Assembly: GCA_965198235.1 (NCBI GenBank) | Contig: OZ240248.1 | Span: forward strand, 3,360,001 to 3,424,000 | From: Candidatus Poribacteria bacterium | Lineage (GTDB): Bacteria > Poribacteria > WGA-4E > WGA-3G | Reading direction: 5' to 3' | Length of the DNA: 64,000 bases | Part shown: in pieces, positions 8,028 through 63,110 of the stretch | Numbering within the stretch: the stretch's first letter is position 1 | Layout: every line of letters starts with the position of its first letter | Made by a program: the position numbers and the translations under genes | The notes under the pieces: generated by a model | Database searches by the model: none | Seen by the model: only the letters and a program-made list of their open reading frames with translations | What the model was told of the DNA's origin: nothing

Positions 8028-8146
8028 GATCGTAAGCGCAACCGGGGTCCCCGCCCGTTACTGGGAAGGGGCGGGCGCACTGGATAGACGGGGAGCAACG
8101 TTATTATTCCGACTCCCCTCACCGAACCGCAAGGAAAATTAAAAAT
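8028..8146 (+). repeat. 'ACCGAACCGCAAGG' family intergenic element ending at the nuoH start codon
   Basis: Aligns with 59505-59605 (minus strand); ends ACCGAACCGCAAGGAAAATTAAAAAT-ATG. Confidence 0.8.
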
Positions 8147-9334
8147 ATGGAAAATTTCCCTCTCGTTTTAATCATCAGTTCAATCGTCAAGATTCTCATC
8201 ATTGTCCATCTGCTGCTTATTGGTGTGATGATAATGATCTGGGCAGAACGACGGGTGAGCGGATGGATGCAGGATCGGTTGGGACCTAACCGGGTTGGAC
8301 CACAAGGACTGCTCCAACCTGTTGCAGATGGGCTTAAGTTCCTGTTTAAAGAGGATCTCATCCCGGATCACGTAGATAAGCCGCTTTATGTGCTTGCGCC
8401 AGCAATGCTGTTAGTCCCGGCACTTGTTACGGTTGCAGTCGTGCCATTTGGGAGTTCTATTACGGTATTTGGGCATGAAATACCGCTCCAGATTGCAGAT
8501 ATCAATATCGGTATTCTGTATGTTTTGGCGATAACATCCCTCGGAGTCTACGGGGTTGTGCTCGGCGCATGGGCATCCAATAACAAGTACTCACTTTTGG
8601 GTGGTTTACGTTCATCTGCGCAGATGATTAGTTACGAGCTAACACTCGGATTGGCAATCATCGGTGTGCTGATGCTAACGAGTTCTCTCAGCCTTCGTGA
8701 GATCGCAAAGGTACAAGGCGGATATCCGTGGCAGTGGAATTTCCTGATTCACTTCCCCGCATTTCTGGCGTTTACAACAGCAATGTTTGCAGAAACCAAC
8801 CGATTGCCCTTTGACCTCGCTGAAGCGGAGCAGGAACTTGTTGCAGGGTATCATACCGAATACAGTAGTATGAAGTTCGCGATGTTTTTCATGGCAGAAT
8901 ACATGAACATGATTGTCGGCTCTGCCGTAACAGTGACGCTCTTCTTAGGAGGATGGCATTTCTTCGGTTTAGAAAATGTCGGTGGTCCCGTCTGGAGTGG
9001 GCTTATCTCGTTCGGTATCTTTTTTGTCAAAACAGCAATTTTCCTGTTCGTGTTTATCTGGGTTCGATGGACATTTCCTCGGTTCCGTTATGACCAACTC
9101 ATGAACTTAGGTTGGAAATTCCTATTGCCTGTCGCCTTGACTTCAATCGTCGTGACCGGCACTCTATGGATAACGACCAGCTCTCGCCTGATCGTGGGTA
9201 TCGGCAATGTGGTTTCCGCGTTTATTGTTGTATCTATTGTGGCTGGACTCCTTGTGATGAAGACACCTAAGCCAGCAATCCAGGATAGCGATATGCTTCG
9301 CAGTGAGAACTCACACCAACCGTTTTTTAAATAA
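8147..9334 (+). CDS. nuoH: NADH-quinone oxidoreductase subunit H
   Basis: ERRVSGWMQDRLGPNRVGP.GLLQP.ADGLK, ETNRLPFDLAEAEQELVAGY, PRFRYDQLM. Confidence 0.96.
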   Translation: MENFPLVLIISSIVKILIIVHLLLIGVMIMIWAERRVSGWMQDRLGPNRVGPQGLLQPVADGLKFLFKEDLIPDHVDKPLYVLAPAMLLVPALVTVAVVPFGSSITVFGHEIPLQIADINIGILYVLAITSLGVYGVVLGAWASNNKYSLLGGLRSSAQMISYELTLGLAIIGVLMLTSSLSLREIAKVQGGYPWQWNFLIHFPAFLAFTTAMFAETNRLPFDLAEAEQELVAGYHTEYSSMKFAMFFMAEYMNMIVGSAVTVTLFLGGWHFFGLENVGGPVWSGLISFGIFFVKTAIFLFVFIWVRWTFPRFRYDQLMNLGWKFLLPVALTSIVVTGTLWITTSSRLIVGIGNVVSAFIVVSIVAGLLVMKTPKPAIQDSDMLRSENSHQPFFK

Positions 9335-9546
9335 TTGGACTCCTAGGCCGCCCTCCATTACATTTCGGGCAAGTTTCAGGTCAATTTCAACGGAGTTGGA
9401 GACAAGTAAGATTCTTAAACATTTCATAACCCAGGAGGAGTTAGAATTCACCGGAAACCACCGCGTAATGAAATTATGCCTTAAATGGCATAATTTGTCT
9501 TTGCTTTACATTTGGAGCGGTGCTCAGGTTGCTAATCGTTAAAAAA
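9324..9546. mobile_element. MITE-like element with imperfect terminal inverted repeats at the usual nuoI position
   Basis: Left TTTTTTAAATAATTGGACTCCTAGGCCGC vs right GCGGTGCTCAGGTTGCTAATCGTTAAAAAA. Right half closely matches 18776-18885; left half resembles 58555-58672. Confidence 0.6.
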
Positions 9547-10074
9547 ATGAATGCAGAACAGATTCTATTTATTCTCTTTGGAGCGGTCTCGCTGATTGGC
9601 GCGATTGCTGTAATTTCGTTTCGACATCCGATTTATAGCGCGCTTTCGCTTATTGTAACGTTTTTCGCACAAGCAGGGCTTTTTGTCCTGCTGGGCGCAC
9701 ATTTCGTTGCGGCTGTTCAAGTAATTGTCTATGCCGGCGCGATTATGGTCCTGTTCCTCTTTGTGATTATGCTCCTGAACTTGGGTACACTCTCGGCGAA
9801 AGGGGCTATTGGGGGGAAACTGAAGGGATTCGCTATAATCTTAGGCATTCTCTTTGCCGCCGAAGGCATCTATATCGCAGTGAATGCGCTCAACGACACC
9901 GCAGTGGCATCGGCAGAATCCACGGCGGCAGCGGTAACGACAACCACTTATGACATTGGCGAACTCTTGTTCAGCAAGTACCTCTTACCGTTTGAGGTTA
10001 CTTCGCTTATTTTGTTGGCGGCATTGATTGGCGTTATCGTCTTGGTAAAACGCGAAGGTCAAGAAGAAAACTAA
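9547..10074 (+). CDS. nuoJ: NADH-quinone oxidoreductase subunit J
   Basis: HPIYSAL, QVIVYAGAIMVLFLFVIMLL, YLLPFEVTS. Confidence 0.95.
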   Translation: MNAEQILFILFGAVSLIGAIAVISFRHPIYSALSLIVTFFAQAGLFVLLGAHFVAAVQVIVYAGAIMVLFLFVIMLLNLGTLSAKGAIGGKLKGFAIILGILFAAEGIYIAVNALNDTAVASAESTAAAVTTTTYDIGELLFSKYLLPFEVTSLILLAALIGVIVLVKREGQEEN

Positions 10075-10107
10075 AGTCAGTAATCAGCAGTCAGTAGGTG
10101 AGGTGTT

Positions 10108-10285
10108 TATCTTCATAGCATCAAAGACGTAGCCTGTAATGTAATGGAAGGGTTTTTGCTTGGGGTCTTTGATAGGGGTTTTTGATAGGGTGTTTCTGCG
10201 GATTTCTGCGGATTTCTTCAGATTTACGCTAGGGAATGTCAAAGTCCTAAAGCCACTTGACCGAACCGCAAGGAAAATTAAAAAT
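10108..10285 (+). repeat. 'ACCGAACCGCAAGG' family element ending at the nuoK start, with nested GTTTTTG(C/A)T.GGG units
   Basis: 5' part matches 62976-63110 (minus); 3' part matches 54180-54280 (minus). Confidence 0.8.
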
Positions 10286-10585
10286 ATGTCATTAGAGTAT
10301 TATCTCATTTTGAGCGCGCTCTTGTTTACAACGGGAGTCATCGGGGTCCTTATCCGCAGGAACGCTATCATCATCTTTATGTGTATTGAACTGATGCTAA
10401 ATGCGGCGAATCTCGCCTTTGTAGCTATCAGTCGTAGTCTCGGTGAGGCAACGGGCCAGGTGTTCGTTTTCTTTGTGATGACTGTCGCTGCCGCCGAGGT
10501 CGCGATTGGGCTCGCAATTATTGTGAGCGTCTTCAAACATCGACAGACAGTTAATGTGGATGAAGTTAATTCCTTGAAGGGCTAA
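10286..10585 (+). CDS. nuoK: NADH-quinone oxidoreductase subunit K
   Basis: [28 protein letters not shown]; ATG 10286. Confidence 0.96.
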
Positions 10586-10589
10586 TTTC

Positions 10590-10783
10590 TAATTATTGGG
10601 TTTTTGCTCTGCTCTCCACTTCGTTTCGAGCAGGTTTTTGGTCAGGTTGCAGCGTGTTTGAGAATCTGTGCAATGTTCACAAAACGCTTTAAGAAATCCG
10701 ACAAGTGCCCAGTGCCGCCGTAAATTAACCGAAAACCATCGTGAAACGAAGTGGAACGATGAGCAAAAACTTAATAGTTAAAA
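10590..10783. mobile_element. MITE-like element with about 55-bp imperfect TIRs containing TCCACTTCGTTTC / GAAACGAAGTGGA hairpins
   Basis: Inverted arms at about 10590-10645 and 10726-10783. The right arm nearly matches 62000-62058 (minus). Confidence 0.7.
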
Positions 10784-10794
10784 GGGTTTAAAAA

Positions 10795-12684
10795 ATGTCA
10801 CTTGAACTCATTAGTGTTCTGTTAGTTGCCCCGCTTGTTGGGTTTCTGATTAACGGGTTGTTAGGAAAATGGCTAAAAGGTAACGAGCAACTGAGTGGAT
10901 GGATAGGTTCGCTTGCAGTGCTTGTTTCTTTAGTCTGTTCGATTATCGCTTTTGCCAGTTTGCACGGCGGTGCTGCCCCGTTCGATGAAACGCTGTATGA
11001 ATGGATTACAGGCGAGTCGTTCGCTTTCAATATCGGGTTCCGTGTGGACGCACTAACGTCAGTGATGTTGTTGGTGATTACAGGTGTTGGGTTTCTCATC
11101 CACGTCTATTCGATCGGCTACATGCATGGCGATGCAGGATATACACGCTATTTTGCCTATCTGAATCTGTTCATCTTTGCGATGCTAATCTTGGTCCTCG
11201 GAAACAACTATCTGATGATGTTCGTCGGATGGGAAGGGGTTGGACTCTGCTCATATCTCCTCATAGGATTCTGGTATGAGAAGCAAACGGCGACAGATGC
11301 TGGAAAAAAAGCGTTTATCGTGAACCGAATCGGTGATTTCGGGTTTCTGCTGGGGATGTTTACTCTGTTTGCTGCTTTCGGAACTCTCGATTTCGCATCG
11401 ATATTTGATGCCGCTGAGGCAGATAATTTTCAGAAAGTCTTTGGTGCCAGTACCCTCGTAATTGCGACCTTGTTACTTTTCGTTGGCGCGATAGGTAAAT
11501 CGGCACAAATTCCGCTCTATGTATGGCTCCCGGACGCAATGGAAGGTCCCACCCCTGTCAGTGCCTTGATTCACGCCGCTACAATGGTGACGGCGGGCGT
11601 ATATATGATAGCACGCTCCGCTGTGCTTTATAATATAGCACATACCGGCGAAGTGGTCGCTTGGATCGGCGTTTTGACTGCCTTCTTCGCTGCAACGATA
11701 GCACTTACCCAGAACGATATTAAACGCATCCTCGCTTATTCCACTGTGAGCCAACTCGGGTATATGTTCCTTGGTGTTGGTGTTGGTGCTTATGCATCTG
11801 GCATTTTCCATTTAGTAACGCATGCCTTCTTTAAAGGACTGATGTTCCTTACCGCTGGTAGTGTGATGCACGCAATGGCAAATGAATTGGATGTGCGGAA
11901 GATGGGCGGCTTAAAGGCAAAGATGCCGATAACGCACTGGACCTTTTTAGTAGGTGCCCTTGCTATTGCCGGGTTTCCGTTTCTGAGTGGTTTCTGGAGC
12001 AAAGATGAAATCTTGCACAGTGCGTGGGGGAGTTCACCTATTATTTACGTCATCGGTTTAGTCACGGCGTTCTTGACGGCGTTTTATATGTTCCGCTTGA
12101 TCTTTGTGACGTTTTATGGTGAATCTCGTGTTGAATCCGAAGTTGCTTCGCATCTGCACGAATCGCCACCGGTCATGTGGGTGCCGTTGGCAATTCTGGC
12201 GATCCCTTCTGCCTTAATCGGTTTGCTGTTGGGGTGGGGTGGACATGACAGTTGGTTCCACCACTTCACGAAGAGTGTTTTTCCAGAGGCACACCATGAG
12301 GCATCGGGTAATGTGATCTTATTTATGGTGATTTCATCGGTTGTGGGTTTGGCAGGGATTGCGTTCGCGTGGTCGCGCTATCGCGAAAGGACACCGTCTG
12401 ACGAACCTACCAATGCACTACATAAGCTTCTTGCGAACAAGTACTATGTTGATGAGGTATATAACGCACTCATCGTGCAACCGATTAAAAACGGTTCTCA
12501 CTACCTACTCTGGCGGATTATAGATAACGGTATTATTGATGGGATTGTCAACGGTGTCGGGTCTATTATTCGATTTATTGGTGGAACGTTGCGCCGCCTC
12601 CAGACAGGACTTGTCCAAGTGTACATTGTATCAATGGTTCTCGGAATTGTGTTATTCCTCGCATACTATCTGTTTTTTACTTAA
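10795..12684 (+). CDS. nuoL: NADH-quinone oxidoreductase subunit L
   Basis: GWEGVGLCSYLLIGFW, KSAQIPLYVWLPDAMEGPTPVSALIHAATMV, HAFFK. Confidence 0.97.
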   Translation: MSLELISVLLVAPLVGFLINGLLGKWLKGNEQLSGWIGSLAVLVSLVCSIIAFASLHGGAAPFDETLYEWITGESFAFNIGFRVDALTSVMLLVITGVGFLIHVYSIGYMHGDAGYTRYFAYLNLFIFAMLILVLGNNYLMMFVGWEGVGLCSYLLIGFWYEKQTATDAGKKAFIVNRIGDFGFLLGMFTLFAAFGTLDFASIFDAAEADNFQKVFGASTLVIATLLLFVGAIGKSAQIPLYVWLPDAMEGPTPVSALIHAATMVTAGVYMIARSAVLYNIAHTGEVVAWIGVLTAFFAATIALTQNDIKRILAYSTVSQLGYMFLGVGVGAYASGIFHLVTHAFFKGLMFLTAGSVMHAMANELDVRKMGGLKAKMPITHWTFLVGALAIAGFPFLSGFWSKDEILHSAWGSSPIIYVIGLVTAFLTAFYMFRLIFVTFYGESRVESEVASHLHESPPVMWVPLAILAIPSALIGLLLGWGGHDSWFHHFTKSVFPEAHHEASGNVILFMVISSVVGLAGIAFAWSRYRERTPSDEPTNALHKLLANKYYVDEVYNALIVQPIKNGSHYLLWRIIDNGIIDGIVNGVGSIIRFIGGTLRRLQTGLVQVYIVSMVLGIVLFLAYYLFFT

Positions 12685-12738
12685 TTTTTAACTATGGACC
12701 TATGGGCACCGTTCCACTTCGTTACACGGTGGTTTACG
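12685..12738. repeat. Arm of the TCCACTTCGTT hairpin repeat family
   Basis: TTTTTAACTATGG...CACCGTTCCACTTCGTTACACGGTG directly after the nuoL stop. Confidence 0.65.
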
Positions 12739-12970
12739 GAGAAGTAGAGAGCCTGCTTTAGGTTTAGAAAGGTTTCTGACCTTACCGATTTTCAAAACGC
12801 CGACGCGAATTGCATCAGAAAGATGAAGATCGTTGGCTTTTTTGGTGCTTCCCTTCGATGTGGCTCTGGAAGACTTGGTTCAAGCGATAACCTATTCCTT
12901 CAAAAGAGGGAAGTGCAACCAGTGAATTATTCCTATTGATGAAAGTTAATTTGTCCTAAAGGAGGTTTCC

Positions 12971-14629
12971 TTGTTACTTTCAATAGTCATTTTTTTACCA
13001 CTGCTCGGTGTGATAGCGATTGCCTTGCTCAGAGGACTCGGTGCCTCCGCTGTCAAAGGCATCGCGCTTGTCATTGGGCTCCTAACTTTTATTGTCTCAT
13101 TGGGGCTTTACACCGGGTTTGACACAACGACTGCAACGTTCCAAAATGTCGCGCAGCAAGAGTGGATTCCCGGTTTAGGTACAAGTTACCACATCGGCAT
13201 TGATGGTATTTCGCTATGGTTAGTGTTGCTTACAACTTTCCTGACACCGGTGTGTATCCTCGCCGCATGGAATTCGGTCGAGAAAGGGCTAAGCGGTTTT
13301 ATGATGTCGCTCCTCGCTCTTGAGACCGGGATGTTGGGTGTCTTCTGTGCTTTGGATCTGTTCCTCTTTTTTGTATTTTGGGAGTCGATGCTAATTCCGA
13401 TGTACTTCCTCATCGGTATTTGGGGTGGAGAACGTCGAATTTATGCAACCGTGAAGTTCGTTCTTTATACAATGGCGGGCAGTGCGCTAATGCTGGTTGG
13501 CATCTTGGTGCTGTACTTCCAAAACAACAATAGTTTCGATCTCACGACGCTTAGCGGTCCGTTTGAACATTCACATCTATTGTTCTTGGCGTTTTTCATT
13601 GCATTTGCGATTAAGGTTCCGCTCTTTCCGTTCCATACTTGGCTACCAGATGCCCACGTTGAAGCCCCCACGGTGGGAAGTGTAATCCTTGCCGGAGTAC
13701 TGCTAAAGATGGGAACCTATGGGATAATCCGATTTTGCCTACCACTCTTTCCCGATGCAGCGGCTGAATTTACTCCGTTGATAGTGCCACTCGCTGTAAT
13801 TGGCATCATTTACGGCGCATTGGTGGCGATGGTCCAACCAGATCTGAAAAAACTGGTCGCATATTCCAGTGTGAGTCACCTCGGTTTTGTAGTGTTGGGG
13901 TTGTTTTCAAAAAATCCCGCTGGTATTCAAGGAAGCGTCTTACAAATGATTAATCACGGTTTAAGCACAGGCGCGTTGTTCCTTTTGGTCGGAATGATTT
14001 ATGAGCGACGACACAGCAGGATGATTGTAGATTTCGGTGGCTTGGCGAAGCGAATGCCGATCTTTGCTACAATTTTTATGATTGTGACATTATCATCAAT
14101 TGGGCTACCGGGTTTGAATGGATTCGTTGGTGAATATATGATACTGTTTGGCAGTTTTGTTCAGGGAGCCTTCTCGAAGATATATGTAGTTTTGGCAACA
14201 GCAGGTGTGATTCTGGCAGCTGTATATATGCTGTGGATGTTCCAACGGGTGATGTTTGGGACACTGGATAAGACAAATGAAGCTTTGCCTGACTTGAACG
14301 CACGTGAGATCGTTGTGATGCTTCCGATACTGCTGTTCATCGTCTGGATCGGCGTTTATCCGAAACCTTTCCTGAGTAAGATGGAGAAATCAGTAGGACT
14401 TGTCGTGACGCAGGTACAAACTGAACCTGCTATGGGGCGCGCGGGAGAACAGGAGAATAGCAGTCAGCAGTCAGTGGTCAGCAGTCAGCAAGACGGAGAC
14501 ACTTTAATAAAAAACCTCTTTCCTGATAGCCGACAGCCGATGGCTGATAGCCAATATACCGAACTCGCTCTACACGGGACACAGCGCGCCCAGCATGAAA
14601 AGATTGAAAAGGAGGCAGAGACGAAGTAA
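12971..14629 (+). CDS. nuoM: NADH-quinone oxidoreductase subunit M with repeat-derived C-terminal extension
   Basis: FWESMLIPMY, KVPLFPFHTWLPDAHVEAPT, LLKMGTYG, AYSSVSHLG. TTG start follows AAGGAGG. Confidence 0.95.
   Translation: MLLSIVIFLPLLGVIAIALLRGLGASAVKGIALVIGLLTFIVSLGLYTGFDTTTATFQNVAQQEWIPGLGTSYHIGIDGISLWLVLLTTFLTPVCILAAWNSVEKGLSGFMMSLLALETGMLGVFCALDLFLFFVFWESMLIPMYFLIGIWGGERRIYATVKFVLYTMAGSALMLVGILVLYFQNNNSFDLTTLSGPFEHSHLLFLAFFIAFAIKVPLFPFHTWLPDAHVEAPTVGSVILAGVLLKMGTYGIIRFCLPLFPDAAAEFTPLIVPLAVIGIIYGALVAMVQPDLKKLVAYSSVSHLGFVVLGLFSKNPAGIQGSVLQMINHGLSTGALFLLVGMIYERRHSRMIVDFGGLAKRMPIFATIFMIVTLSSIGLPGLNGFVGEYMILFGSFVQGAFSKIYVVLATAGVILAAVYMLWMFQRVMFGTLDKTNEALPDLNAREIVVMLPILLFIVWIGVYPKPFLSKMEKSVGLVVTQVQTEPAMGRAGEQENSSQQSVVSSQQDGDTLIKNLFPDSRQPMADSQYTELALHGTQRAQHEKIEKEAETK
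14456..14555. repeat. Heptamer palindromic element inside the nuoM coding sequence
   Basis: AATAGCAGTCAGCAGTCAGTGGTCAGCAGTCAGC...CCTCTTTCCTGATAGCCGACAGCCGATGGCTGATAGCC. Confidence 0.75.
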
Positions 14630-16123: not shown

Positions 16124-16195
16124 GCCATTCAAGGTTATACTCAGCTACCACTGTACTCGGAAACTTGGACAGAAAACTATCAAAGGAGGTTTTGA

Positions 16196-17629: not shown

Positions 17630-17634
17630 GCGAT

Positions 17635-17798
17635 TAAGGTTGCTCGGTTTTGTCCGTTGTCCAAAACCGAATCCGTGATGAAAAGTGAGTTGTTGGGCAG
17701 GACCCCAATTATTGCACTTTTAATCACGAAACCAAGAATTAATAAACCATCCGTTTCTCGACAACGGAGAGAAACGAGCAAGGACAATAGCTTAAAAA
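17635..17798. repeat. Long imperfect inverted-repeat element between nuoN and the next gene
   Basis: Nested pairs TTGCTCG/CGAGCAA, TCCGTTGTC/GACAACGGA and CGTGATGAAAAGTG/CACTTTTAATCACG; ends TTAAAAA-ATG. Confidence 0.6.
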
Positions 17799-18773: not shown

Positions 18774-18775
18774 AG

Positions 18776-18885
18776 ACGGTTGGAATTAACTGAGAACGCT
18801 GCGAAATGAAATTAGGTTTCCTTAAATGGCATAATTTGTCTTTGCCTTACATTTGGAGCAGTGCCCAGAATTAATCGTTTAGAAA
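18776..18885 (+). repeat. Copy of the element found upstream of nuoJ
   Basis: CCTTAAATGGCATAATTTGTCTTTGC.TTACATTTGGAGC.GTGC shared with 9479-9525. Confidence 0.8.
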
Positions 18886-22046: not shown

Positions 22047-22048
22047 TA

Positions 22049-30551: not shown

Positions 30552-30640
30552 GAAACCCGATTTTTTGACCCTCAACTCGTCTTCCACATTTTGTGAAGGC
30601 ACGAGTTGATGATCAAAACGGAAAAATCGGAGCGGAAACC
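30552..30640. repeat. Palindromic 'CCCGATTTTTTGAC..TCAACTCG...CGAGTTGATGATCAAAAC.GAAAAATCGG' element upstream of bioB
   Basis: Arms closely match 41399-41490. Confidence 0.8.
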
Positions 30641-30654
30641 CAATTGTTAAAAAC

Positions 30655-34472: not shown

Positions 34473-34547
34473 CGGGCCCGACGGGACTTGAACCCGCGAC
34501 CTCCTGCGTGACAGGCAGGCGCGCTAAACCAACTGCGCCACGAGCCC
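34473..34547 (-). tRNA. tRNA-Asp(GTC)
   Basis: GGGCTCGTGGCGCAGTTGGTTTAGCGCGCCTGCCTGTCACGCAGGAGGTCGCGGGTTCAAGTCCCGTCGGGCCCG cloverleaf; no encoded CCA. Confidence 0.95.
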
Positions 34548-34612
34548 ATAGTATTTTCTGTCTTTCAACCTCGAAATCGAGAGACTTTTCATTTTAAGGC
34601 GGTCACGGCAGA

Positions 34613-34686
34613 TAGGCGGGACAGGACTTGAACCTGTGACCTACAGCTTGTAAGGCTGTCGCTCTAGCCACCTGAGCTACCCGCCC
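34613..34686 (-). tRNA. tRNA-Val(TAC)
   Basis: GGGCGGGTAGCTCAGGTGGCTAGAGCGACAGCCTTACAAGCTGTAGGTCACAGGTTCAAGTCCTGTCCCGCCTA. Confidence 0.93.
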
Positions 34687-41379: not shown

Positions 41380-43464
41380 ATGTTGCTAAATACGCGTCAA
41401 AAACCCGATTTTTTGACCATCAACTCGACTCCGATACAAAACGGAAAAGCACGAGTTGATGATCAAAACAGAAAAATCGGAGCGAAAACCCAAGCGTTAA
41501 AAAACCAAAAAATCCGACTCCCTGCTATTCTCGTAGGACTGCTTTTGATAGGGGCGATGTGTGCAATCACACCCTACAACAACTATTTCCTACAAAATAC
41601 TAAGATCGCAGGCAATCATCTCCCTGTTGGTTCAATCTTCGGGCTTCTCATTTTGGTGTTTCTCGTCAACGTGCCGTTGCGTAAGTTGATGCGAAATGGG
41701 CGTTTCGCCTTTTCCGCACTTGAGTTAACCGTTGTCTGGATGATGCTAATCGTTGCAGTCGGTATTCCGTCAATGGGTTTGTTGCAGTTTCTGCTTCCGT
41801 CTCTTGTTGCGCTGCAGTATTTTGCGACGACGGAAAATGATTGGGCAGAAACACTCCATCCGCACGTCCCAGAATGGCTCGTCGTCACGGAACCCGGCGC
41901 GGTAACAGACTTCTATGAAGGGATTTCTCCGGGTGAAAGTGTTCCATGGGTGATCTGGCTCAAGCCCTTACTCGTCTGGGGCCTTTTCGTCCTGGTCTTT
42001 TATTTTACGACGCTCTGTCTTTCCACAATTCTCCGAAAGCAATGGGTAGAACGCGAAAGGTTTTCGTTCCCTTTAATTCAGATTCCGATACAGCTCGCTG
42101 CTGAACCAGCGCGCGGCACACTGCTCAATACTTTTTTCAAAAGCAGGCTCCTTTGGGCAGGAATGGCACTACCAGTGGTGTTGCACCTTATCAACGGGTT
42201 GCATGCGCATTTCCCAAGGGTGCCGGAGATTCCACTTATTTATAACATCTACACCGTCTTCACCGAAAAACCGTGGTATACGCTTGGATGGTGGCCCGCG
42301 ATGCGGTTCGTCATCTATTTTTCGGTCATCGGGATAGCCTCTTTACTCACGCTTGAGGTGTCGTTTAGCCTCTGGTTCTTTTATCTTTTTTTCAAACTCC
42401 AATATATCATCATGAATGCGATCGGACTCAGCATCGGTCCATGGATTAGCTGTAGCCGTCAAGTGATGGGCGGCTATCTCATTTTTGTTCCCGCTGTTTT
42501 CTGGATAGGGCGTGAACACATCATCGCTGTTTTTAGAAAGACGTTTGGTCTCGGACACGCAAGAACGAGCCACGACACCGTAGGAGGTCAACCGATAGAC
42601 GATTCAAACGAACCGGTCTCGTATCGTGTGGCGCTGCTTGGATTTCTCTTAGGATTTGCCGTTCTTGTCGTGTTTTTGGTCGTCGCGGGTGTAACAACGT
42701 GGGTTGCGGTCGTAACGCTGCTCTCTATCTTTATCACATCAATTGTTTTGTCTTGGATGGTCGTTAACGGAGGGCTATTGCTGGTGCAGGCTCCTTTTTT
42801 CCCTTCGGAATACATTGATATTACTTTGGGTTCCAACGCATTAGGGCATAAGAGTCTTGCGATCCTGAGTTTTCAGCGCACCTTCTTGCGCGATTGGGGC
42901 GAGTTTATGATGCCAAACTTCCTTCATAGCTTCAAGGCAGCGGATGAGGTGAAACTTGCCCGTCGGCGTGTTATGCCGATCCTATGGGTTGCAATTGTCT
43001 TCGCACTCCTTGTGTCTGTTTATGCCTCGTTGACGCTAATTTATGGCAAGGGTGCCCTATTTTTACAGAGTTGGTCTTTCGTGGTCGCGCCGCGGAACTA
43101 TTTCCAACGGATGAGTAGCCTTATCCAATTCCCTATTGAAACGAAGTGGGACGAGGTGTACAGCATGATTGCTGGCGCAGGGTTTACTGGTTTCATGCTC
43201 TGGATGCGGCAGAACTTTGTCTGGTGGTCCCTACATCCGATCGGTTATCTGCTGGGGGCGACCTACCCACCCTTTCACCTCTGGTCGTCAATTTTAATCG
43301 GATGGTTCATTAAGTATATGGCACTTAAGTTTGGCGGTGCCTCGACGTATCGAAAGATTCGACCCGTCGCATTCGGCTTGATTTTCGGTGAATATGTGAT
43401 GGTGGGGCTGTGGATGATAGTTGGGTTCTTCACAGGAATCGGTTATTTTGCGTTGCCATCATGA
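41380..43464 (+). CDS. DUF6785/DUF6784-like polytopic membrane protein, paralog 2
   Basis: YFATTENDW, RKQWVERERFSFPL, WWSLHPIGY, AFGLIFGE. Confidence 0.75.
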   Translation: MLLNTRQKPDFLTINSTPIQNGKARVDDQNRKIGAKTQALKNQKIRLPAILVGLLLIGAMCAITPYNNYFLQNTKIAGNHLPVGSIFGLLILVFLVNVPLRKLMRNGRFAFSALELTVVWMMLIVAVGIPSMGLLQFLLPSLVALQYFATTENDWAETLHPHVPEWLVVTEPGAVTDFYEGISPGESVPWVIWLKPLLVWGLFVLVFYFTTLCLSTILRKQWVERERFSFPLIQIPIQLAAEPARGTLLNTFFKSRLLWAGMALPVVLHLINGLHAHFPRVPEIPLIYNIYTVFTEKPWYTLGWWPAMRFVIYFSVIGIASLLTLEVSFSLWFFYLFFKLQYIIMNAIGLSIGPWISCSRQVMGGYLIFVPAVFWIGREHIIAVFRKTFGLGHARTSHDTVGGQPIDDSNEPVSYRVALLGFLLGFAVLVVFLVVAGVTTWVAVVTLLSIFITSIVLSWMVVNGGLLLVQAPFFPSEYIDITLGSNALGHKSLAILSFQRTFLRDWGEFMMPNFLHSFKAADEVKLARRRVMPILWVAIVFALLVSVYASLTLIYGKGALFLQSWSFVVAPRNYFQRMSSLIQFPIETKWDEVYSMIAGAGFTGFMLWMRQNFVWWSLHPIGYLLGATYPPFHLWSSILIGWFIKYMALKFGGASTYRKIRPVAFGLIFGEYVMVGLWMIVGFFTGIGYFALPS
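41399..41490. repeat. Palindromic repeat inside the 5' end of the DUF6785-like ORF
   Basis: Copy of the 30552-30640 element, read in frame. Confidence 0.75.
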
Positions 43465-43579: not shown

Positions 43580-43678
43580 ATAGAAAACCAAGCTTGAAAC
43601 GGAGTTTCAAGCGGAACCAAGGAAAAGCACGTCAAATCACAAACCCACGTGCCTTAACCGCAAGGGAAATTAGAAAAC
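43580..43678 (+). repeat. 'AACCGCAAGG' family element ending at a start codon
   Basis: GCGGAACCAAGGAAAAGCACGTCAAA..ACCCACGT..TTAACCGCAAGG aligns with 62976-63060 (minus). Confidence 0.7.
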
Positions 43679-50115: not shown

Positions 50116-50138
50116 GGGACCAGGAAACGAGGAAAAAT

Positions 50139-51539: not shown

Positions 51540-51543
51540 GCGG

Positions 51544-51684
51544 AATAGCGATCAGCGGTCAGGTGTTTTTGATAGGGTGTTTCCCCAGGTTGCTACGCAA
51601 CCCTTTCAGCAATCAGTGGAAGAGACGTTCGGTTAACCGAAGACCTCTTTACCAACTGCTGACTGCTGACTGCTGATAGCCATT
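51544..51684. repeat. Heptamer palindromic element between convergent genes
   Basis: AATAGCGATCAGCGGTCAG...AAGAGACGTTCGGTTAACCGAAGACCTCTTT...CTGCTGACTGCTGACTGCTGATAGCC. Confidence 0.8.
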
Positions 51685-52702
51685 AAAGGTGATACCCCTC
51701 TTTCATCGTTTGGATGCTGTAGAGGCAATTTTCTGCGGTTATATAGAGCGTCTTGCTTGTTTTGCCACGTCCGAAGGCGACGTTAGTGGGTTTATCAGGG
51801 GTCTTGACATAAGCCAGTTCCTCCCCTTCAGGCGAGTACACGCGAACTCCTGGTCGGGTTTCATCTCGCACCGCTACGAAGAGATTTCCTTCAGCATCAA
51901 CCACCATACCGTCTGGACCGTCTTGTGGGGCGTAGTCAACCAGCACTTTTCGGAAAGTCGCTGTGCCTTCCGGTGAGAGGTCATAGGCGAGTAGTGCCAT
52001 ACGTCCTTTACGCAGTGGTACATCATCAGGAAAACTATCCATCGCACCGTTGTCATGACTGATAACGTAAAGGGTTTGCTGATCAGGGGAAACGGCGACA
52101 CCATTCGGTTTGCCAGCATCCGTAACGACGAGATAAATAGAGCCATCTGGATCGATCCGGTAGACTCCAAAGATGGGTTGTTCAACGGGCTCATGCCCGG
52201 CGTACCGGGGGTCGGTAAAATAGATGCGTCCCTGCTCATCAATTGACAAATCGTTGGGCGAATTAAGGGGGCTTCCGTTATACAGACCCGCAATAATTTC
52301 GCTTTTACCCGTCGTTAGATCTGTCCGAGTAATCCTACGTCCCCCAAAATCCGCGCCTTCCGCGATAACCAAGCGACCCTGTGCATCAAACTTCGTACCA
52401 TTAGACATCCCACTCGGAGAACGGAAAACGGTTGTTTCTCCAGTTTCTGGATTGTGTTTCCAGATATGTCCAGCTTGCATATTCGTCTGATCGGTGAAGG
52501 TGATGTCGCTGAAATAGACCGTCCCGTCCGGCGCGACGGAAACGCCTTCCGTAAAATGTGCCCCGTTGAAGAGTTCCTTAAGTTCGGCATCCGGGGCAAA
52601 GATAGTATCATGGCTTGCAGCGTTTCCAATCAACATAGGTGCTAACGCGAAACCTGCCGCAATAGCAGATATGAGAGATTGTGACATATTTAGATTCGGC
52701 AT
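51683..52702 (-). CDS. SMP-30/gluconolactonase family protein, probably exported
   Basis: FTEG, SNG, NSPND, PNG, GPDG, PTN; N-terminal signal-like segment. Confidence 0.9.
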   Translation of the reverse strand: MPNLNMSQSLISAIAAGFALAPMLIGNAASHDTIFAPDAELKELFNGAHFTEGVSVAPDGTVYFSDITFTDQTNMQAGHIWKHNPETGETTVFRSPSGMSNGTKFDAQGRLVIAEGADFGGRRITRTDLTTGKSEIIAGLYNGSPLNSPNDLSIDEQGRIYFTDPRYAGHEPVEQPIFGVYRIDPDGSIYLVVTDAGKPNGVAVSPDQQTLYVISHDNGAMDSFPDDVPLRKGRMALLAYDLSPEGTATFRKVLVDYAPQDGPDGMVVDAEGNLFVAVRDETRPGVRVYSPEGEELAYVKTPDKPTNVAFGRGKTSKTLYITAENCLYSIQTMKEGYHL

Positions 52703-54179: not shown

Positions 54180-54300
54180 TTTTTAATTATTCCTTGCGGT
54201 TCGGTAAGGGGAGTTAGGGATTTCACGTGCCCTTGCGTAGATCTGCCTGCACCGTTGTTGCAGGCTACGGCTCCGTTAAACCCATTTTCAATTATTCCTT
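54180..54300 (-). repeat. 'ACCGAACCGCAAGG' family element flanked by a duplicated AAGGAATAATT.AAAATG
   Basis: Direct repeats at 54177-54195 and 54283-54300. Confidence 0.75.
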
Positions 54301-54321
54301 AAAGCAATACATTAAAAACTT

Positions 54322-56271: not shown

Positions 56272-56333
56272 AAATGGACTGGACTTAGGGTTTGTAATGG
56301 AGCAATTTATTATTGATGATTATAGCACAATTC

Positions 56334-58109: not shown

Positions 58110-58119
58110 ATAGTTAAAT

Positions 58120-58554: not shown

Positions 58555-58672
58555 TTTTTAATTTATTGCTCCTGGGCTGCTGCTGCATCGCAGTGAGATT
58601 TTGCTTCGCAGTGAGAATGCAGGTTTCCGGTTAATTCGCGACAGGGTTTGGGGATCGGTCGGTTCTTTAAAT
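58555..58672. repeat. Copy of the left arm of the 9324-9546 element, abutting an ATG
   Basis: TTTTTAATT..CTCCTGGGCTGC..GCAGGTTTCCGGTTAATT vs TTTTTTAAAT..CTCCTAGGCCGC..GCAAGTTTCAGGTCAATT. Confidence 0.55.
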
Positions 58673-58718
58673 TAATGCTTATGGCTCAATGGGGTGTGGT
58701 CAGGCACAAGACTTGTCC

Positions 58719-59504
58719 CTACAAGAGGTTGGCTTTGACGTAATTAACCGCGTTTTTGAAAATCACCAATCCGTCGCCTTCTTCAGAACAGGTCTCTTGG
58801 GTTTTAGCAAGCCGTGTCCAACGTGGATGATTCCATTTTGTCAGGAACCGTTCTGGGTGGGGCATTAATCCGAAAATTTTGCCTGTTGCATCACAGATAC
58901 CCGCAATATTGCTATCGGAACCGTTCGGATTGTTAGGGTATCTACTCTCGGCGTACCGAAACACCACCTGATTGTTTGCTTCTAATTCTGACAGCACATT
59001 TGCTGGTGCAGTAAATCTACCTTCAGCGTGCGCAACGGGGAGATAAACACGCGCTTTGACCCCTTTTGTAAAGACACATGGACTCTCTTGTGTTTCCAGA
59101 TCCACCCACCGACACTCGAATTTCGCTGAGGTATTCATCGCTAACGTCGCGCGCTGCGCCATCTCTGAAGTACCGTTACCGGGCAATAAGCCTGTTCGCA
59201 CAAGCACCTGAAACCCATTGCAGATGCCGATTATTAACTTGTCATCTTCGACAAATTGATTCAGCGCATTCGCCAGTTTGTGTTTCATCTCGACCGCCAA
59301 CAGGATACCCGCCGCAATGTCATCGCCGTAAGAGAATCCACCGGGGATCGCGAGGATTTGATAGTCAGCAAGGTTAACTTTGTCTGATATGAGGTGTTGG
59401 ATATGGACTAACGCTGTCTCTGCACCGACGAGTTGGAACGCCATATCCGTTTCTGCATCGCAGTTAGTACCTGCAGTCCGTAAGATGAGTACCCTTGGTT
59501 TCAT
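58719..59504 (-). CDS. purQ: Phosphoribosylformylglycinamidine synthase subunit PurQ
   Basis: GTNCD, PGGFSYGD, GICNGFQ, AHAEG, NPNGS, MPHPER. Confidence 0.96.
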   Translation of the reverse strand: MKPRVLILRTAGTNCDAETDMAFQLVGAETALVHIQHLISDKVNLADYQILAIPGGFSYGDDIAAGILLAVEMKHKLANALNQFVEDDKLIIGICNGFQVLVRTGLLPGNGTSEMAQRATLAMNTSAKFECRWVDLETQESPCVFTKGVKARVYLPVAHAEGRFTAPANVLSELEANNQVVFRYAESRYPNNPNGSDSNIAGICDATGKIFGLMPHPERFLTKWNHPRWTRLAKTQETCSEEGDGLVIFKNAVNYVKANLL

Positions 59505-59605
59505 TTTTTTAATTTTCCTTGCGGTTCGGTTAGGATGGATATATCAAGAACATTCCTCTCCATATACCCAGCCCGCCCGTTAGTTGGGCTTACAAACTAT
59601 CGTTA
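59505..59605 (-). repeat. 'ACCGAACCGCAAGG' family element ending at the purQ start
   Basis: Homologous to 8028-8146. Confidence 0.8.
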
Positions 59606-62023
59606 ATTAAACAGAAGGGGTGCTTGCCATGCAGATTTGAGAATATCAATTGACGCTTCAACTATCGAGTGTCCAGTCTTTCCTTTGATGACGAATTCTG
59701 ATGTGTCTGAAACGGTGCCAAGACAGCCAAGCGGTATTCCCGCCATGTGGTTTTCGTAGGCATGTTGGTGTTGCGGTTCAATCTCCACGAGAAAACGGCT
59801 ATTTGATTCTGAGAATAGGAGGAAGTCGTCAGCGCTGATCTCGTCGCCTGTAGGGATGTCGTCAAGACTCAGAGACATCCCGTACCCACCGGCAAATGAC
59901 ATTTCTGCTGCCGCTACACCGATACCGCCTTCAGAACAGTCATGACACGAGCGCACCAATCCGCTGTTGATGGCAGTACTGAGACGTTCCATTGTCAACT
60001 TGCCTTCACTTGGACGAACGACGGGGGCAGTGTTTCCGACAAAACCGTGGATGTTGAAGTAGTGCGAACCGCCTAATTCAGCGTAAGTGTTGCCGACAAC
60101 ATAAATGAAACTGCCAGGAGTTTTCACGTCCATTGTGACGGCGTGTTGAATGTCGGGCATAACACAGATGGCAGATATGAGGAGTGTTGATGGAATCGCA
60201 CGTTGTTCACCGGTTGTAGTGTCCCGGTATTCGTTGTAGAGGCTATCTTTACCGGAGATGAAAGGTGTGCCGTAAGCGGTTGCGATATCATAACATGCCC
60301 TCGCTGCCCGGACGAGTTCACCGAGTCGGTCGGGTTTGTCCGGATTTCCCCAACAGAAATTGTCCAGTAACGCGGTCTTTTCTAACGTTCCACCAACAGC
60401 GATGATATTCCGTAAAGCCTCATCAATCGCCGCTGCTGCGCTGAGATACGGATCCACGTCGCTATATCTCGGATTGATACCGTTCGCAACGATTACACCT
60501 GTTCGACTGCCTAAGACGGGAGTCGTTACGCATGCGTCGCTCGGTCCGTCGTTTTCCGTACCGACAAGCGGATTGATAACCATACCGCCTTGTACACCGT
60601 GATCGTATTGTCGGATAACCGATTCTTTACTCGCGATATTTGGACTTGCGAGAAGTCGCTCGAGGTCATTCGTGTAGGAGGGGTTTTCAACCCCGATTCC
60701 TCCATCTCGCGATGCCATATCCGGGTGCTTCGGCGGCTCCCAAACCGCCTCTTTCACAGGCATCGGTAGTCCGTTGTGGAGAAACTCCATCTCCAAGTCG
60801 GCAACCATTGTGCCTTCGTAGAAAACCTGTAACCTATGCGTATCTGTGAAAGTCCCGAGGACTGTGGCTTCAACGACTTCTGCCTCGCATATTTCCATGA
60901 GTTCATCCAGATTTTCAGGTGGCACAGCGATGACCATGCGCTCCTGTGCTTCGGAGAGCCAGATTTCCCACGGGGCGAGCCCTTCATATTTCAAAGAGAC
61001 GTGTTCCAGATGAACCTCTGCTCCTATATCTTCTCCCATCTCACCAACGGCAGACGAGAACCCTCCGGCACCGCAATCGGTTATGGAGCGATAAAGATTC
61101 CGATCCCGCGCCTGTAAAAGGGCATCGACAATCTTCTTTTCCATAATCGGGTTGCCGATCTGTACCACACTGCCAAGGCTTTCAGAAGTATCGTCCAATT
61201 CTGCAGAGGAGAAGGTCGCGCCGTGAATTCCATCGCGTCCGGTTTGTCCGCCGATTGCAACTACCAGATCACCGGGTTCAACGGATTTCTCGCATCTGTT
61301 TCTCGGTATTAAACCGACATTTCCACAGAAGACGAGTGGGTTTGCGGTATAGCGGGAGTCAAAAAGGATAGCACCGTTCGCCGTGGGAATACCCATTCGG
61401 TTGCCGTAATCACGCACACCAGCGACGACCCCTTTAAAGACACGTTTCGGGTGAAGGGTACCTTTCGGCAGCTGCGCGTAAGGCGTATCCGGCATCCCGA
61501 AACAGAATACGTCCGTGTTTAAAATCGGCTTTGCACCAAGCCCTGTACCGAGTGAGTCGCGAATTACACCGCCTATCCCAGTTCCGGCACCCCCATACGG
61601 TTCAATCGCTGATGGATGGTTATGTGTTTCGACTTTGAAAACGAGATTGAATTGCTCGTCAAATTCGATGATACCGGCGTTATCTGAAAAGACGGAGACA
61701 CACCACGGTTTCGCTATCTCCTCGGTTGCACGTTGAATGAAGGTTGGAAACAAGCCGTCAATCTGCTCTGGTGCTTTCCCTTCTTCGGAATAGAGGATAG
61801 TACTCTTAAAGGTCTTGTGAACACAATGCTCAGACCAAGTTTGGGCGATGGTCTCTATCTCTACATCGGTGGGATTGCGTCCGAGGGTTCCAAAGTGGGT
61901 CTGAATCGTCTGCATCTCGTTTAGATTCAGAGACAGTGTTCCTTCTCGGCTGATACGCATCAACTCGGTATCATCGGCAGTTAAAATCTCTATTTCTTTT
62001 TTTAAACTATTAAATCTGGTCAT
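59603..62023 (-). CDS. purL: Phosphoribosylformylglycinamidine synthase subunit PurL
   Basis: WSEHCVHK, KVETHNHPS, GRDGIHGATF, DCGAGG, SEAQERM, HDCSEGG. Start is ATG 62023 or GTG 62041. Confidence 0.95.
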   Translation of the reverse strand: MTRFNSLKKEIEILTADDTELMRISREGTLSLNLNEMQTIQTHFGTLGRNPTDVEIETIAQTWSEHCVHKTFKSTILYSEEGKAPEQIDGLFPTFIQRATEEIAKPWCVSVFSDNAGIIEFDEQFNLVFKVETHNHPSAIEPYGGAGTGIGGVIRDSLGTGLGAKPILNTDVFCFGMPDTPYAQLPKGTLHPKRVFKGVVAGVRDYGNRMGIPTANGAILFDSRYTANPLVFCGNVGLIPRNRCEKSVEPGDLVVAIGGQTGRDGIHGATFSSAELDDTSESLGSVVQIGNPIMEKKIVDALLQARDRNLYRSITDCGAGGFSSAVGEMGEDIGAEVHLEHVSLKYEGLAPWEIWLSEAQERMVIAVPPENLDELMEICEAEVVEATVLGTFTDTHRLQVFYEGTMVADLEMEFLHNGLPMPVKEAVWEPPKHPDMASRDGGIGVENPSYTNDLERLLASPNIASKESVIRQYDHGVQGGMVINPLVGTENDGPSDACVTTPVLGSRTGVIVANGINPRYSDVDPYLSAAAAIDEALRNIIAVGGTLEKTALLDNFCWGNPDKPDRLGELVRAARACYDIATAYGTPFISGKDSLYNEYRDTTTGEQRAIPSTLLISAICVMPDIQHAVTMDVKTPGSFIYVVGNTYAELGGSHYFNIHGFVGNTAPVVRPSEGKLTMERLSTAINSGLVRSCHDCSEGGIGVAAAEMSFAGGYGMSLSLDDIPTGDEISADDFLLFSESNSRFLVEIEPQHQHAYENHMAGIPLGCLGTVSDTSEFVIKGKTGHSIVEASIDILKSAWQAPLLFN

Positions 62024-62153
62024 CGTTCCACTTCGTTTCACGATGTTTTTCGGTTAAGTCTGTGACGCTTGGAGATCGGTACGGTTTTCAGAAGAAGACT
62101 CAAATTTTATTAGAAAAACATTTTTGGTTAAGTCTAATGGCTTTAATTCTGAC

Positions 62154-62975
62154 CTATTCCTTAAAGGAAGCCGTTACCCGCGGCATACTTTCCTCACAGG
62201 CAAACCGTTCAATGCTGGAGGCGCCCACGAAGCCGACGGCATCTGTTTTCTCGTTGATAAACGCTGCCTCTGGTGCTTTCGAGATGGGACCGCCGTGTGC
62301 CAAGCAGATAACGTCTGGGTTCACGGTTCTCGCGGCATCGCAAATCTCCTGCACTCGCACCGCCGCACCTTCAAGCGTGAAAGCCGTTTCCGCGCCGATA
62401 GTGCCACCTATCGTTGTTCCCATGTGTGCGATGATAACGTCCGCGCCGACCTTCGCCATATTCTCGGACTCTTCTGGATTGAAGACATAGACGATGGTGA
62501 AAAGATCCATCTCGTGCGCGATACCGATCGTTTCAACCTCTTTATAGAAGCCCATCCCTGTCTCTTCAAGCGTTACCCGAAAAGTTCCATCAATCACGCC
62601 AACGGTCGGGAAGTTATTAACGCCGTCGAAACCGACATCGCGGACCTGCTTAAGGAAGTTGCTCATCCTGCGCGTTGGGTCTGTGCCGTTGACCCCAGCG
62701 ATAACGGGGGTCTCTTTGACAACGGGTAGGACTTCACGCTCCCCCATCTCCATGACGATAGCGTTCGCATCACCGTAAGCCAAAAGTCCTGCACAGGAGC
62801 CGAACCCCGACATCCGATAGCGACCGGAATTGTAAATCACAATCAGGTCGGCGCCACCCTGTTCAGCGAATTTCGCTGTGATACCTGTTCCCGCGCCCAC
62901 AGCGAGTAAGGGTTTGTCTCTATTCAATTCTGTCTTCAGTCGTTCTAAAACCTGATCTCGTCTATAATCTGGCAT
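62154..62975 (-). CDS. Phosphoenolpyruvate hydrolase-like TIM-barrel protein (Tm-1/UPF0261 TIM domain)
   Basis: GAGTGITAK, YNSGRYRM.G.GS.AGLL.YGDAN, NNFPTVG, HGGPI, GASSIER. Confidence 0.85.
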   Translation of the reverse strand: MPDYRRDQVLERLKTELNRDKPLLAVGAGTGITAKFAEQGGADLIVIYNSGRYRMSGFGSCAGLLAYGDANAIVMEMGEREVLPVVKETPVIAGVNGTDPTRRMSNFLKQVRDVGFDGVNNFPTVGVIDGTFRVTLEETGMGFYKEVETIGIAHEMDLFTIVYVFNPEESENMAKVGADVIIAHMGTTIGGTIGAETAFTLEGAAVRVQEICDAARTVNPDVICLAHGGPISKAPEAAFINEKTDAVGFVGASSIERFACEESMPRVTASFKE

Positions 62976-63110
62976 TTTTTAATTATTCCTTGCGGTTAAA
63001 TAACGTGGGTGTTTTTGCTTGGGTGTTTCCCCAGAACTTTGACATGCCTTTCTTGAATCCGCTCTCCATTTCATTACGAGCTGCGTTTTTGGTGCTGTGA
63101 AGATCGGGGA
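62976..63110 (-). repeat. 'AACCGCAAGG' family element ending at a start codon
   Basis: GATCTTCACAGCACCAAAAACGCAGCTCGTAATGAAATGGA matches 10108-10148; ends TTAACCGCAAGGAATAATTAAAAA-ATG. Confidence 0.8.

Follow-up and report, generated by a model that had tools for sequence, protein, structure and literature searches.

Why should functionally unrelated genes of one bacterium begin exactly where a repeat ends? The question is raised by a 64,000-nucleotide (nt) stretch of DNA, here called the window (positions 3360001–3424000 of contig C1), from the genome of a Poribacteria sponge symbiont (5.17 Mb in 2 contigs, 48% G+C, 96% complete). An initial annotation had reported six related elements in it that end directly on an ATG, five of them carrying AAGGA, a Shine-Dalgarno (SD)-like motif. 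All six sites could be located. Each has the form ...AACCGCAAGG(N)AAAATTAAAAA, in which the motif AACCGCAAGG (exact copies at 8125, 10264 and 43656 on the plus strand and at 54192, 59517 and 62988 on the minus strand) is followed by a tail (A/T)A(A/T)AATTA(A/G)AAA, which runs straight into the ATG of a long open reading frame (ORF), at 8147 (nuoH), 10286 (nuoK), 43679, 54179, 59504 (purQ) and 62975. AAGGA is indeed present at five of the six, and 43679 has AAGGG. The observation is confirmed and had understated the feature, which is real and genome-wide. We consider it probable that these elements are genus-specific, non-autonomous and polar repeat arms, similar to repetitive extragenic palindromic (REP) sequences or miniature inverted-repeat transposable elements (MITEs), whose tail would act as a portable translation-initiation region. 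Genes were approximated from long ORFs without a gene finder, so that all gene-related counts below are approximate.

In the window itself the number of motifs is unremarkable, since AACCGCAAGG with at most one mismatch occurs 7 times, compared with a mean of 4.1 in shuffled sequences, 13 of 100 of which reach 7. Genome-wide, however, composition would predict about 8.9 exact copies and 206 are found; the motif is followed by an ATG at a distance of exactly 12 nt in 65 of them and of 10–14 nt in 87. When these elements, which we call type A, are aligned on AACCGCAAGG, conservation extends from about −68 to +22 and ends at the ATG, and the best conserved part is the gene-proximal 35 nt. A second and larger module that shares the type A hairpin, type B, consists of a variable-stem hairpin with a conserved loop followed by CCCAGGAGCCCATAGTTAAAAAA. 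To quantify flush placement we counted a start as served if it opens 80 or more codons, an antisense stop if its ORF has 100 or more, and used 19,992 non-ORF positions as a random control. Among 178 type A copies with a tail, 88 (49%) are flush with a start and 20 are flush with, or supply, an antisense stop; the corresponding numbers are 79 and 80 among 253 type B copies, and 230 (1.15%) and 555 (2.8%) at the random positions. Flush placement at starts is thus far above random on the genome-wide distance check that the initial annotation had proposed, and flush tails serve 167 distinct starts. Similarly, the pattern TTA[AG]AA[AG]N0-3ATG occurs 553 times in the genome, and 324 of these ATGs open 100 or more codons, as do only 18% of 20,000 random ATGs.

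Starts are not the only boundaries involved. Where type B is inverted, 46 antisense genes stop on the TAA within the TTAA of its tail and 30 more touch the tail with a stop of their own. The initial annotation took the elements to be non-autonomous and to sit at translation starts; the elements are indeed repeated, non-coding and non-randomly placed, but type B meets stops (80) as often as starts (79), so that the special feature is the tail end meeting an ORF boundary. That interpretation is therefore partly supported, being largely right and too narrow in its start-specificity. Only the tail end adjoins genes: around gene boundaries, upstream stop codons included, the head end has no peak, and a tie between the head end and the upstream stop was dropped for that reason. 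The two types also differ in orientation. Of 180 type A copies, 148 point the same way as the gene downstream, and co-directional spacers outnumber divergent ones 88:13 where intergenic lengths would give about 1.6:1; type B in co-directional spacers shows 93 vs. 93 for the two orientations. Repeated DNA lies at −80 to −15 of 167 of 244 tail-bearing starts but of only 65 of 400 other starts, and this co-occurrence indicates that the tail is not the general leader of the genome, which has an ordinary purine peak at −12 to −9. We also looked for a replication-strand bias; replichores could not be delimited from the weak GC skew, and the orientation of the copies showed no pattern.

To explore whether these sites are empty in other genomes, we compared them with relatives; those retrieved with the host NuoH are Candidatus Poribacteria (metagenome-assembled genomes, MAGs, of sponge symbionts). 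Upstream of nuoH, AACCGCAAGG is found in 5 of 29 Poribacteria loci, joined to differing 5′ modules; 7 show other A-rich tails, and AAGGAG stands 5–9 nt ahead of the same ATG in at least 10. Different species bear different type A subfamilies at this same site. The orthologs of ATG 54179 are filled in 5 of 10 relatives, and the other 5 are empty with a canonical SD. At purQ, the 21 relatives divide into 8 with an element at the ATG, 12 with the native SD alone and 1 with an element further upstream together with the native SD, and at ATG 62975 4 of 8 are filled, 2 empty and 2 cut off. In the empty relatives at nuoH, 54179, purQ and 62975 an AAGGAG-type SD precedes the same ATG by 5–9 nt, and in the filled alleles the repeat tail is the sole remaining upstream translation signal. 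The loss of the native SD while the orthologous ATG is kept fits the tail as an initiation region, and because the empty alleles have the same ATG followed by the same codons, the ATG belongs to the gene and not to the repeat. The empty alleles with a native SD at these four sites and at nuoH-nuoJ, together with the non-random placement, show that copies are neither scattered at random relative to starts nor present at the same loci in all relatives, either of which would have spoken against the initial annotation. Sister species differ in which genes are occupied, and the genes served are unrelated in function.

The nuoH-nuoJ junction gives the clearest picture. In 24 of 28 relatives it reads ..GAATAG-GAGGC....-ATGAATGCAGAACAG with a spacer of at most 12 nt. 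In the host, homology ends after ..CACCAACCG and resumes exactly at ATGAATGCAGAACAG (..ATGAAT), and about 213 nt of inverted and sense arms stand in place of 31 nt of host DNA that held six NuoH C-terminal codons, the stop and the native SD. The host NuoH now ends ..FFK-TAA inside the inverted tail. It was also seen that the host NuoH C-terminus is unlike that of all relatives, with an 11-nt insertion that shifts the frame ahead of the inverted tail (9296–9334) and resembles a piece of a different repeat, GCTTCGCAGTGAGAA. The nuo spacers of another genus span 41 (G-H), 5 (H-J), 41 (J-K) and 3 nt (K-L, GGATAAAAAATG), and nuoJ-nuoK is 41 and 48 nt in two relatives (L033 and L018, respectively), whereas the host spacers measure 164–211 nt (nuoH-nuoJ about 185–213 and nuoK-nuoL 209 nt). 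The 31 nt lost here, and tails that intrude on ORF ends (46 type B stops and 16 type A junctions without a start codon), could also be explained by neutral debris, in which random insertion was followed by deletion of dispensable DNA and the tail has no role in translation. We regard this as quite improbable, because no trimming against genes is seen at the head end, no part of the repeat is better conserved than the tail, and the genes it serves have stayed intact and conserved even though their native SD is gone, which means that something in the tail must support initiation.

The repeats are confined to a narrow group of hosts. In a comparison with 18 species of the same genus and 12 genomes from the same order but other genera, 18 of 18 congeners had the type A tail pattern, at 6–243 copies, with 1 match in the 12 other-genus genomes; the type B hairpin pattern, with 211 copies in the host, occurs 2–55 times in each of the 18 congeners and has no match in the 12 other-genus genomes. 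Controls with reversed patterns gave 0 in these counts. Within the genomes compared the repeat families are thus found only in one Poribacteria genus, and the differences between congeners, up to 40-fold for type A and 100-fold for type B, indicate proliferation. A search of species-representative genomes with the exact 24-nt tail returned, among the matches listed, 78 from Poribacteria and 2 from unlabelled MAGs; in other Poribacteria, again among the matches listed, 88 of 124 tails reach a start (opening at least 28 codons) within 0–3 nt. Two type A copies, in opposite orientation, 13 kb apart and both flush with an ATG, were also seen on a putative viral contig of 33.9 kb (IMGVR_UViG_3300012932_000188), which could be a prophage from Poribacteria or else a mis-binned fragment.

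If the tail replaces the native ribosome-binding site (RBS), it should look like one. The 3′ end of the host 16S rRNA has a canonical CCUCC anti-SD, and the tail or the linker carries AAGGA or AGGAG. Folding of the region −25 to +20 is weaker at the 167 element-served starts than at 800 other SD-bearing starts (−3.49 vs. −4.38 kcal/mol, P ~ 9×10−7). The canonical anti-SD, the SD-like motifs, the weak folding and the conservation of the tail all fit an initiation region, and the tail may well drive initiation. A different role for the same letters would be that of a promoter cassette for leaderless mRNA, with the tail (TATAAT/ATAGTT-like, then about 6–7 A) as a −10 box and transcription from the A of the ATG. 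Some tails do read GGTATAATTAAAAAAATG, with TATAAT 7 nt ahead of the ATG, and Neisseria REP2 repeats are described as bearing a promoter and RBS (PMC3184786); but sigma-70-like sites, the only type scanned, number 3 against 3.7 in shuffles with no properly spaced −35, many copies lie within the conserved nuo operon, and type B stands inverted against stops in half of its copies. We therefore hold a promoter role to be extremely improbable.

It is also conceivable that no SD at the junction is needed, because a short ORF within the element delivers ribosomes to the gene start. This kind of coupling has been described for mycobacterial interspersed repetitive units (MIRUs), mobile repeats that insert at start codons and carry an internal ORF coupled at −4 nt (PMC12548453, citing Supply et al. 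1997). In the host, GGAGGAGAAC or GGAAAGGAAC, which are SD-like, followed by ATG or GTG at motif position −25 occurs in 26 of 180 type A copies, and at the 16 junctions without a start codon an internal start is in frame for 6–7 of the 9 genes that lie in the frame concerned, adding about 16 residues. In the 62 canonical copies, however, the internal start is open through the tail (ATG at +22) in only 5, most copies have GTT or GTC at −25, and type B has no consistent internal ORF, all of which makes coupling very unlikely here. The 16 genes that leave a type A tail without a start codon at the junction include those outside the window at C1:1881072, 4404109, 4375174, 2459788, 4867791, 898584 and 1162185; in most of the 16 an in-element ATG or GTG at motif position −25 (or −20), after a GGAGGAGAAC-like SD, is in frame and would add about 14–16 residues, e.g. 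on a shikimate-dehydrogenase-like ORF. Two further type A copies lie in frame inside ORFs (C1:1196556 and C1:1715072; one diacylglycerol-kinase-like and one hydantoinase-B-like) and add about 40 residues. Altogether, about 10 N-termini are extended by type A, and type B tails give C-terminal codons and the stop to 46 genes.

Each arm is laid out as a head (..TTAACCAGAAACC), a hairpin of 4–6 bp, a linker and an A-rich tail (..ATWRTTAAAAAA). The hairpin loop is conserved (GNAAYGNARTGGA or ACAACGG) while the stem varies freely. In type A the 5′ hairpin, often after GTAG (consensus before the loop, CGTAGCCC), is followed by CTACGG, about 40 moderately conserved nt, and ACCGAACCGCAAGG with the A-rich tail; the linker, about 45 nt long, ends in ACCGAACCGCAAGG. 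Type B has AACC plus stem without GTAG, and takes the form ..GAATTAACCAGAAACC, a 5–6 bp stem, the loop G[ATG]AA[CT]GNA[AG]TGGA, the stem and GCCCAGGAGCCCATAGTTAAAAAA, then ATG, with the linker CCCAGGAGCC. The loop pattern has 405 matches genome-wide, its reversed control 4. The 364 hairpins comprise 64 different 6-nt arms, with positions 1–3 Watson-Crick paired in 96–99% and an invariant loop, inside which a 2-bp mini-stem covaries (45 C-G vs. 36 U-A in alifold).

Such covariation could be taken to suggest a host-selected RNA leader or regulon, in which the hairpin and the AACCGCAAGG tail form a cis-acting element of the mRNA (a target of an RNA-binding protein or an RNase, for instance, or a 5′ stabilizer) that would have spread through its benefit to the host and would co-control hundreds of genes post-transcriptionally, with mobility secondary. 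Consistent with this, mismatches of the G.U type outnumber those of the A.C type 80:16 on the sense strand (55 of the 80 at one position in one subfamily), AACCGCAAGG stays exact in 206 copies despite 8–25% divergence of the body, and 82% of type A copies are co-oriented with the gene they precede. On the other hand, palindromic DNA repeats keep their stems complementary without any RNA function, type B is indifferent to orientation and stands at stops as often as at starts, occupancy differs between sister species, and the served genes share no function. RNAalifold finds support for no structure in the type A body beyond the 5′ hairpin and an invariant CC-GCAA-GG. Rfam gives no match for the elements, and none up to E = 5 at 7900–10900; its only matches at gathering score in the window are 2 tRNA genes on the minus strand (34473–34686). 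A CsrA-type control, considered because GGA lies in the loop and near the start, was rejected as no PF02599 match was found. On balance an RNA leader appears unlikely to us.

An arm may stand alone or pair head-to-head in a doublet whose tails face outward, and arms are also found in tandem, truncated or nested. Within 400 nt, 58 head-to-head pairs have their tails outward (mode 83–87 nt) and 2 inward, while at longer range 50 tails-inward pairs bracket genes vs. 19 tails-outward pairs. In the doublets the tails are the outer termini of inverted arms whose stems are usually unlike each other; a single arm lacks terminal inverted repeats. With both tails facing out, one doublet can span all of a spacer between a stop and a start, and the nuoK-nuoL spacer is an example. 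In tandem arrays the internal units retain the tail, another sign that it belongs to the repeat. The families are also mosaic: other hairpins are fused to the same tail, and repeats (the ACAACGG loop, the RAYT-type REP) are nested in loops.

In the window, type A elements flush with their ATG lie at 8032–8146 (plus strand, left limit approximate; 5′ hairpin module GTAAGCGC..., tail ACCGAACCGCAAGGAAAATTAAAAAT) before nuoH, at 10129–10285 (plus, with a nested GGGTTTTTGCTTGGGG... module) before nuoK, at 43588–43678 (plus, a ...CCTTAACCGCAAGGG variant) before ATG 43679, and on the minus strand at 54180–54268 before ATG 54179 (with an older tail-like remnant, AAGGAATAATTGAAAAT, further upstream), 59505–59593 before purQ and 62976–63084 before ATG 62975. 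At nuoH-nuoJ, an inverted type B arm (9323–9390, minus) whose tail (TTTTTTAAATAA on the plus strand) gives the last nuoH codons F F K and the TAA faces a sense type B arm (9441–9547, plus) that has another repeat nested in its loop and a tail, GCTCAGGTTGCTAATCGTTAAAAAA, flush with the nuoJ ATG at 9548. A head-to-head doublet (10586–10794) fills the entire spacer from the nuoK TAA to the nuoL ATG at 10795, and a solo inverted type B arm (12685–12750, minus) begins directly after the nuoL stop. The initial annotation had also named other families ending in TTA(A/G)AAA-ATG, and these were seen at nuoJ, nuoL, 17799, copA (18886), 58554 and 30655. They include a related module at 17735–17798 (plus; GACAACGGA-loop hairpin and AGCAAGGACAATAGCTTAAAAA) flush with ATG 17799, a type B arm at 18780–18885 (plus) with a nested CCTTAAATGGCATAATTTG... 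module and its tail flush with the copA ATG, a GACAACGGA-type module with a nested inverted-repeat element at 30553–30654 (plus), whose tail ...CCCAATTGTTAAAAAC stands one C before ATG 30655, and a type B-like arm at 58555–58650 (minus) flush with ATG 58554.

Several smaller repeats accompany these arms. Two modules repeatedly nested in the hairpin, immediately 5′ or 3′ of TGGA (CCTTAAATGGCATAATTTGTCTTTGCTTTACATT, and GGGGTTTTTGCTTGGGTGTTTCT with TTTCTGCGGA repeats), are present at 9474–9512, 18812–18860 and 10150–10235, and the loop seems to be a hotspot for nesting. A small TTAA-flanked element with terminal inverted repeats CCATCAACTCG...CGAGTTGATGG is nested within other repeats at 30570–30615 and 41401–41470 and, across the genome, in many loops of type B; it has the look of a classical TTAA/TA-duplicating MITE. 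A TTAA target duplication was considered for type B as well and rejected: its left TTAA-like motif shows the same conservation in copies at starts, at stops and elsewhere, and is therefore part of the element. A separate class, made up of CAGC(A/G)ATCAGC... runs and the inverse form (CTGATAGCCGA..), is located immediately 3′ of stop codons (2199–2231, 7993–8017, 10077–10104, 14456–14488, 14504–14556 and 51633–51685) and is present in the “empty” spacers of relatives too.

How would the arms move? Empty as well as filled sites, together with the differences in copy number, suggest that the modules move, or have moved, by a DNA-level mechanism. The mobile-element enzymes searched for were those of PF01797 and PF00078. 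PF01797 has 6 matches in the genome, 3 IS200/IS605-type tnpA and 3 RAYT-like Y1 transposase genes (C1:606918–607262, 1898775–1899119 and 3853757–3854101). RAYT/HUH genes of the kind that the initial annotation had thought worth seeking thus exist, but all three are flanked by another, inverted REP family (hairpin GCACTCCAGCGGAGTGC + TATGTCTATAG, or hairpin + TATGTCTATAGAAAA; about 120 copies genome-wide). Its statement that no cognate transposase is in the window holds for the whole genome with the families searched. A retro-element, suggested by the A-rich 3′ end and the 5′-truncated stacked tails, was rejected since PF00078 has no match in the 96%-complete genome. An integron attC-like reading, prompted by AAC...GTT ends, was set aside as the flanked genes are syntenic core genes, and no search was made for an integrase.

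A number of results weigh against our interpretation. No mobilizing enzyme was found: the three RAYT genes are flanked by a different REP family, no reverse transcriptase (PF00078) was found in a genome that is 96% complete, and no transposase-like ORF lies between inverted arms 400–4000 nt apart in the 19 pairs inspected. There is no target-site duplication at nuoH-nuoJ, the one site compared, and the event there, a replacement of 31 nt, is not explained by simple insertion and survivorship. In native spacers of 41–48 nt (nuoG-H and nuoJ-K) the tail is still flush and the native SD gone. The 5′-truncated tails stacked beside ATGs are not explained either. Identity among dispersed type A copies is 75–92%, and as 0 of 169 reach 95% there is no sign of very recent movement in the host genome. 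As for translation, the SD-like motif lies about 10–11 nt (type A) or about 15 nt (type B) from the ATG, further than the usual G peak at −12 to −9, which makes use of the SD uncertain. Four sponge metatranscriptome runs cover the region as assembled contigs, in which DNA carry-over is possible; the contigs (for example 8117–8632, 8128–8415 and 12655–12983) end at most 30 nt from element/gene junctions, and under a 31-letter rule none bridges one. One contig (X1, 9616–10190) extends from nuoJ into the spacer by 116 nt.

The 41–48 nt spacers, the 31-nt replacement, the stacked tails and the absence of a duplication and of a matching transposase leave room for active, boundary-directed integration. 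The repeats would then be boundary-seeking DNA of a replacement type, integrating tail-first exactly at ORF boundaries, removing up to about 30 nt of host DNA together with the native SD or stop codon in it, and later adopted as a translation or mRNA-processing module of the host in 4–8% of genes. Such integration would have to proceed without inverted termini, target duplication, reverse transcriptase or a recognizable transposase, and we think it unlikely.

We favor instead survival selection over active targeting as the cause of most of the flush placement, whereby only RBS-carrying insertions would persist in tight operons. The arms, multiplied to different extents in different species, may persist where they are least harmful, in the spaces of a few nt between genes. 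In packed operons only such short spacers would tolerate a landing, so that an insertion there would be flush by necessity. It would part the downstream ATG from an SD lying in or beside the end of the upstream gene, and only elements with an initiation region of their own would survive. In the sense orientation the tail could replace the displaced native RBS with an unstructured A-rich leader and an SD-like AAGGA or AGGAG; inverted, its TTAA may supply or adjoin a TAA stop.

The arms share features with several known systems, of which mycobacterial MIRUs and Neisseria REP2 come closest. Like MIRUs, as these are described in PMC12548453 and PMC3184786, they are intercistronic operon repeats of 40–100 bp that are oriented with genes, would be mobile and insert at start codons with little harm to expression, and can be filled in one species and empty in a related one. 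By that description they are nonetheless set apart: MIRUs have a coupled internal ORF and tetranucleotide direct repeats, whereas the Poribacteria copies show an open ORF in only 5 of 62 cases and no duplication, carry an SD-like motif in the tail, stand also inverted at stops (type B), and occur in another phylum in hundreds of copies instead of 40–50. Neisseria REP2 and Borrelia IR repeats lie immediately upstream of genes with a promoter, RBS and ATG (PMC3184786). They too lack terminal inverted repeats, have a stem-loop near the 5′ end and bring an RBS, as the Poribacteria tail presumably does; but in the account given there they contain a promoter and ATG and concern 14–26 genes, whereas the Poribacteria repeats show no promoter signal, use the ATG of the gene and involve about 167–324 genes. 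The same review describes repeats fused in frame to genes, and some Poribacteria copies resemble its Rickettsia palindromic elements in lying in frame within genes or at gene ends; these are a minority, most copies being intergenic and flush with boundaries. Classical MITEs such as Correia elements (see PMC3184786) are likewise non-autonomous, abundant and intergenic, alter the expression signals of their neighbors and have species-specific copy numbers. Single Poribacteria arms differ from MITEs, however, in having no terminal inverted repeats, and neither a target duplication nor a matching transposase was found.

Short palindromes, covarying stems, inverted doublets, mosaics, tandem arrays and nesting are shared with REP/REPIN-RAYT systems and BIMEs. 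A GTAG tetranucleotide at the foot of the hairpin is a hallmark of REP sequences; type A hairpins are often preceded by GTAG, type B hairpins are not. The Poribacteria arms depart from REP-RAYT in their polarity, their long A-rich tail and the flush contact of only the tail end with ORF boundaries. A literature search on Poribacteria repeats found no paper relevant by title or abstract, and one on MITEs, Shine-Dalgarno sequences and start codons found nothing closer than the MIRU and REP2/IR reviews. Relative to these systems, the polarity, the use of both starts and stops, the spacer-filling doublets and an involvement of 4–8% of genes are new.

Repeats that bring translation signals to start codons are known from few cases, MIRU and REP2, with tens of copies each. 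In this symbiont at least 167 genes (at least 4%), including subunits of the NADH dehydrogenase operon, appear to have had their native RBS swapped for a repeat-borne one, and the inverted module rewrites the ends of about 100 genes, with the affected set differing between sister species. For annotation, this means that repeats shape start codons, C-termini and the lengths of “intergenic” regions in these genomes. The genus offers a natural experiment on the interchangeability of translation-initiation regions, on how selfish DNA can colonize intercistronic spacers of 3–11 nt without killing the operon, and on the turnover of intergenic DNA in uncultured sponge symbionts.

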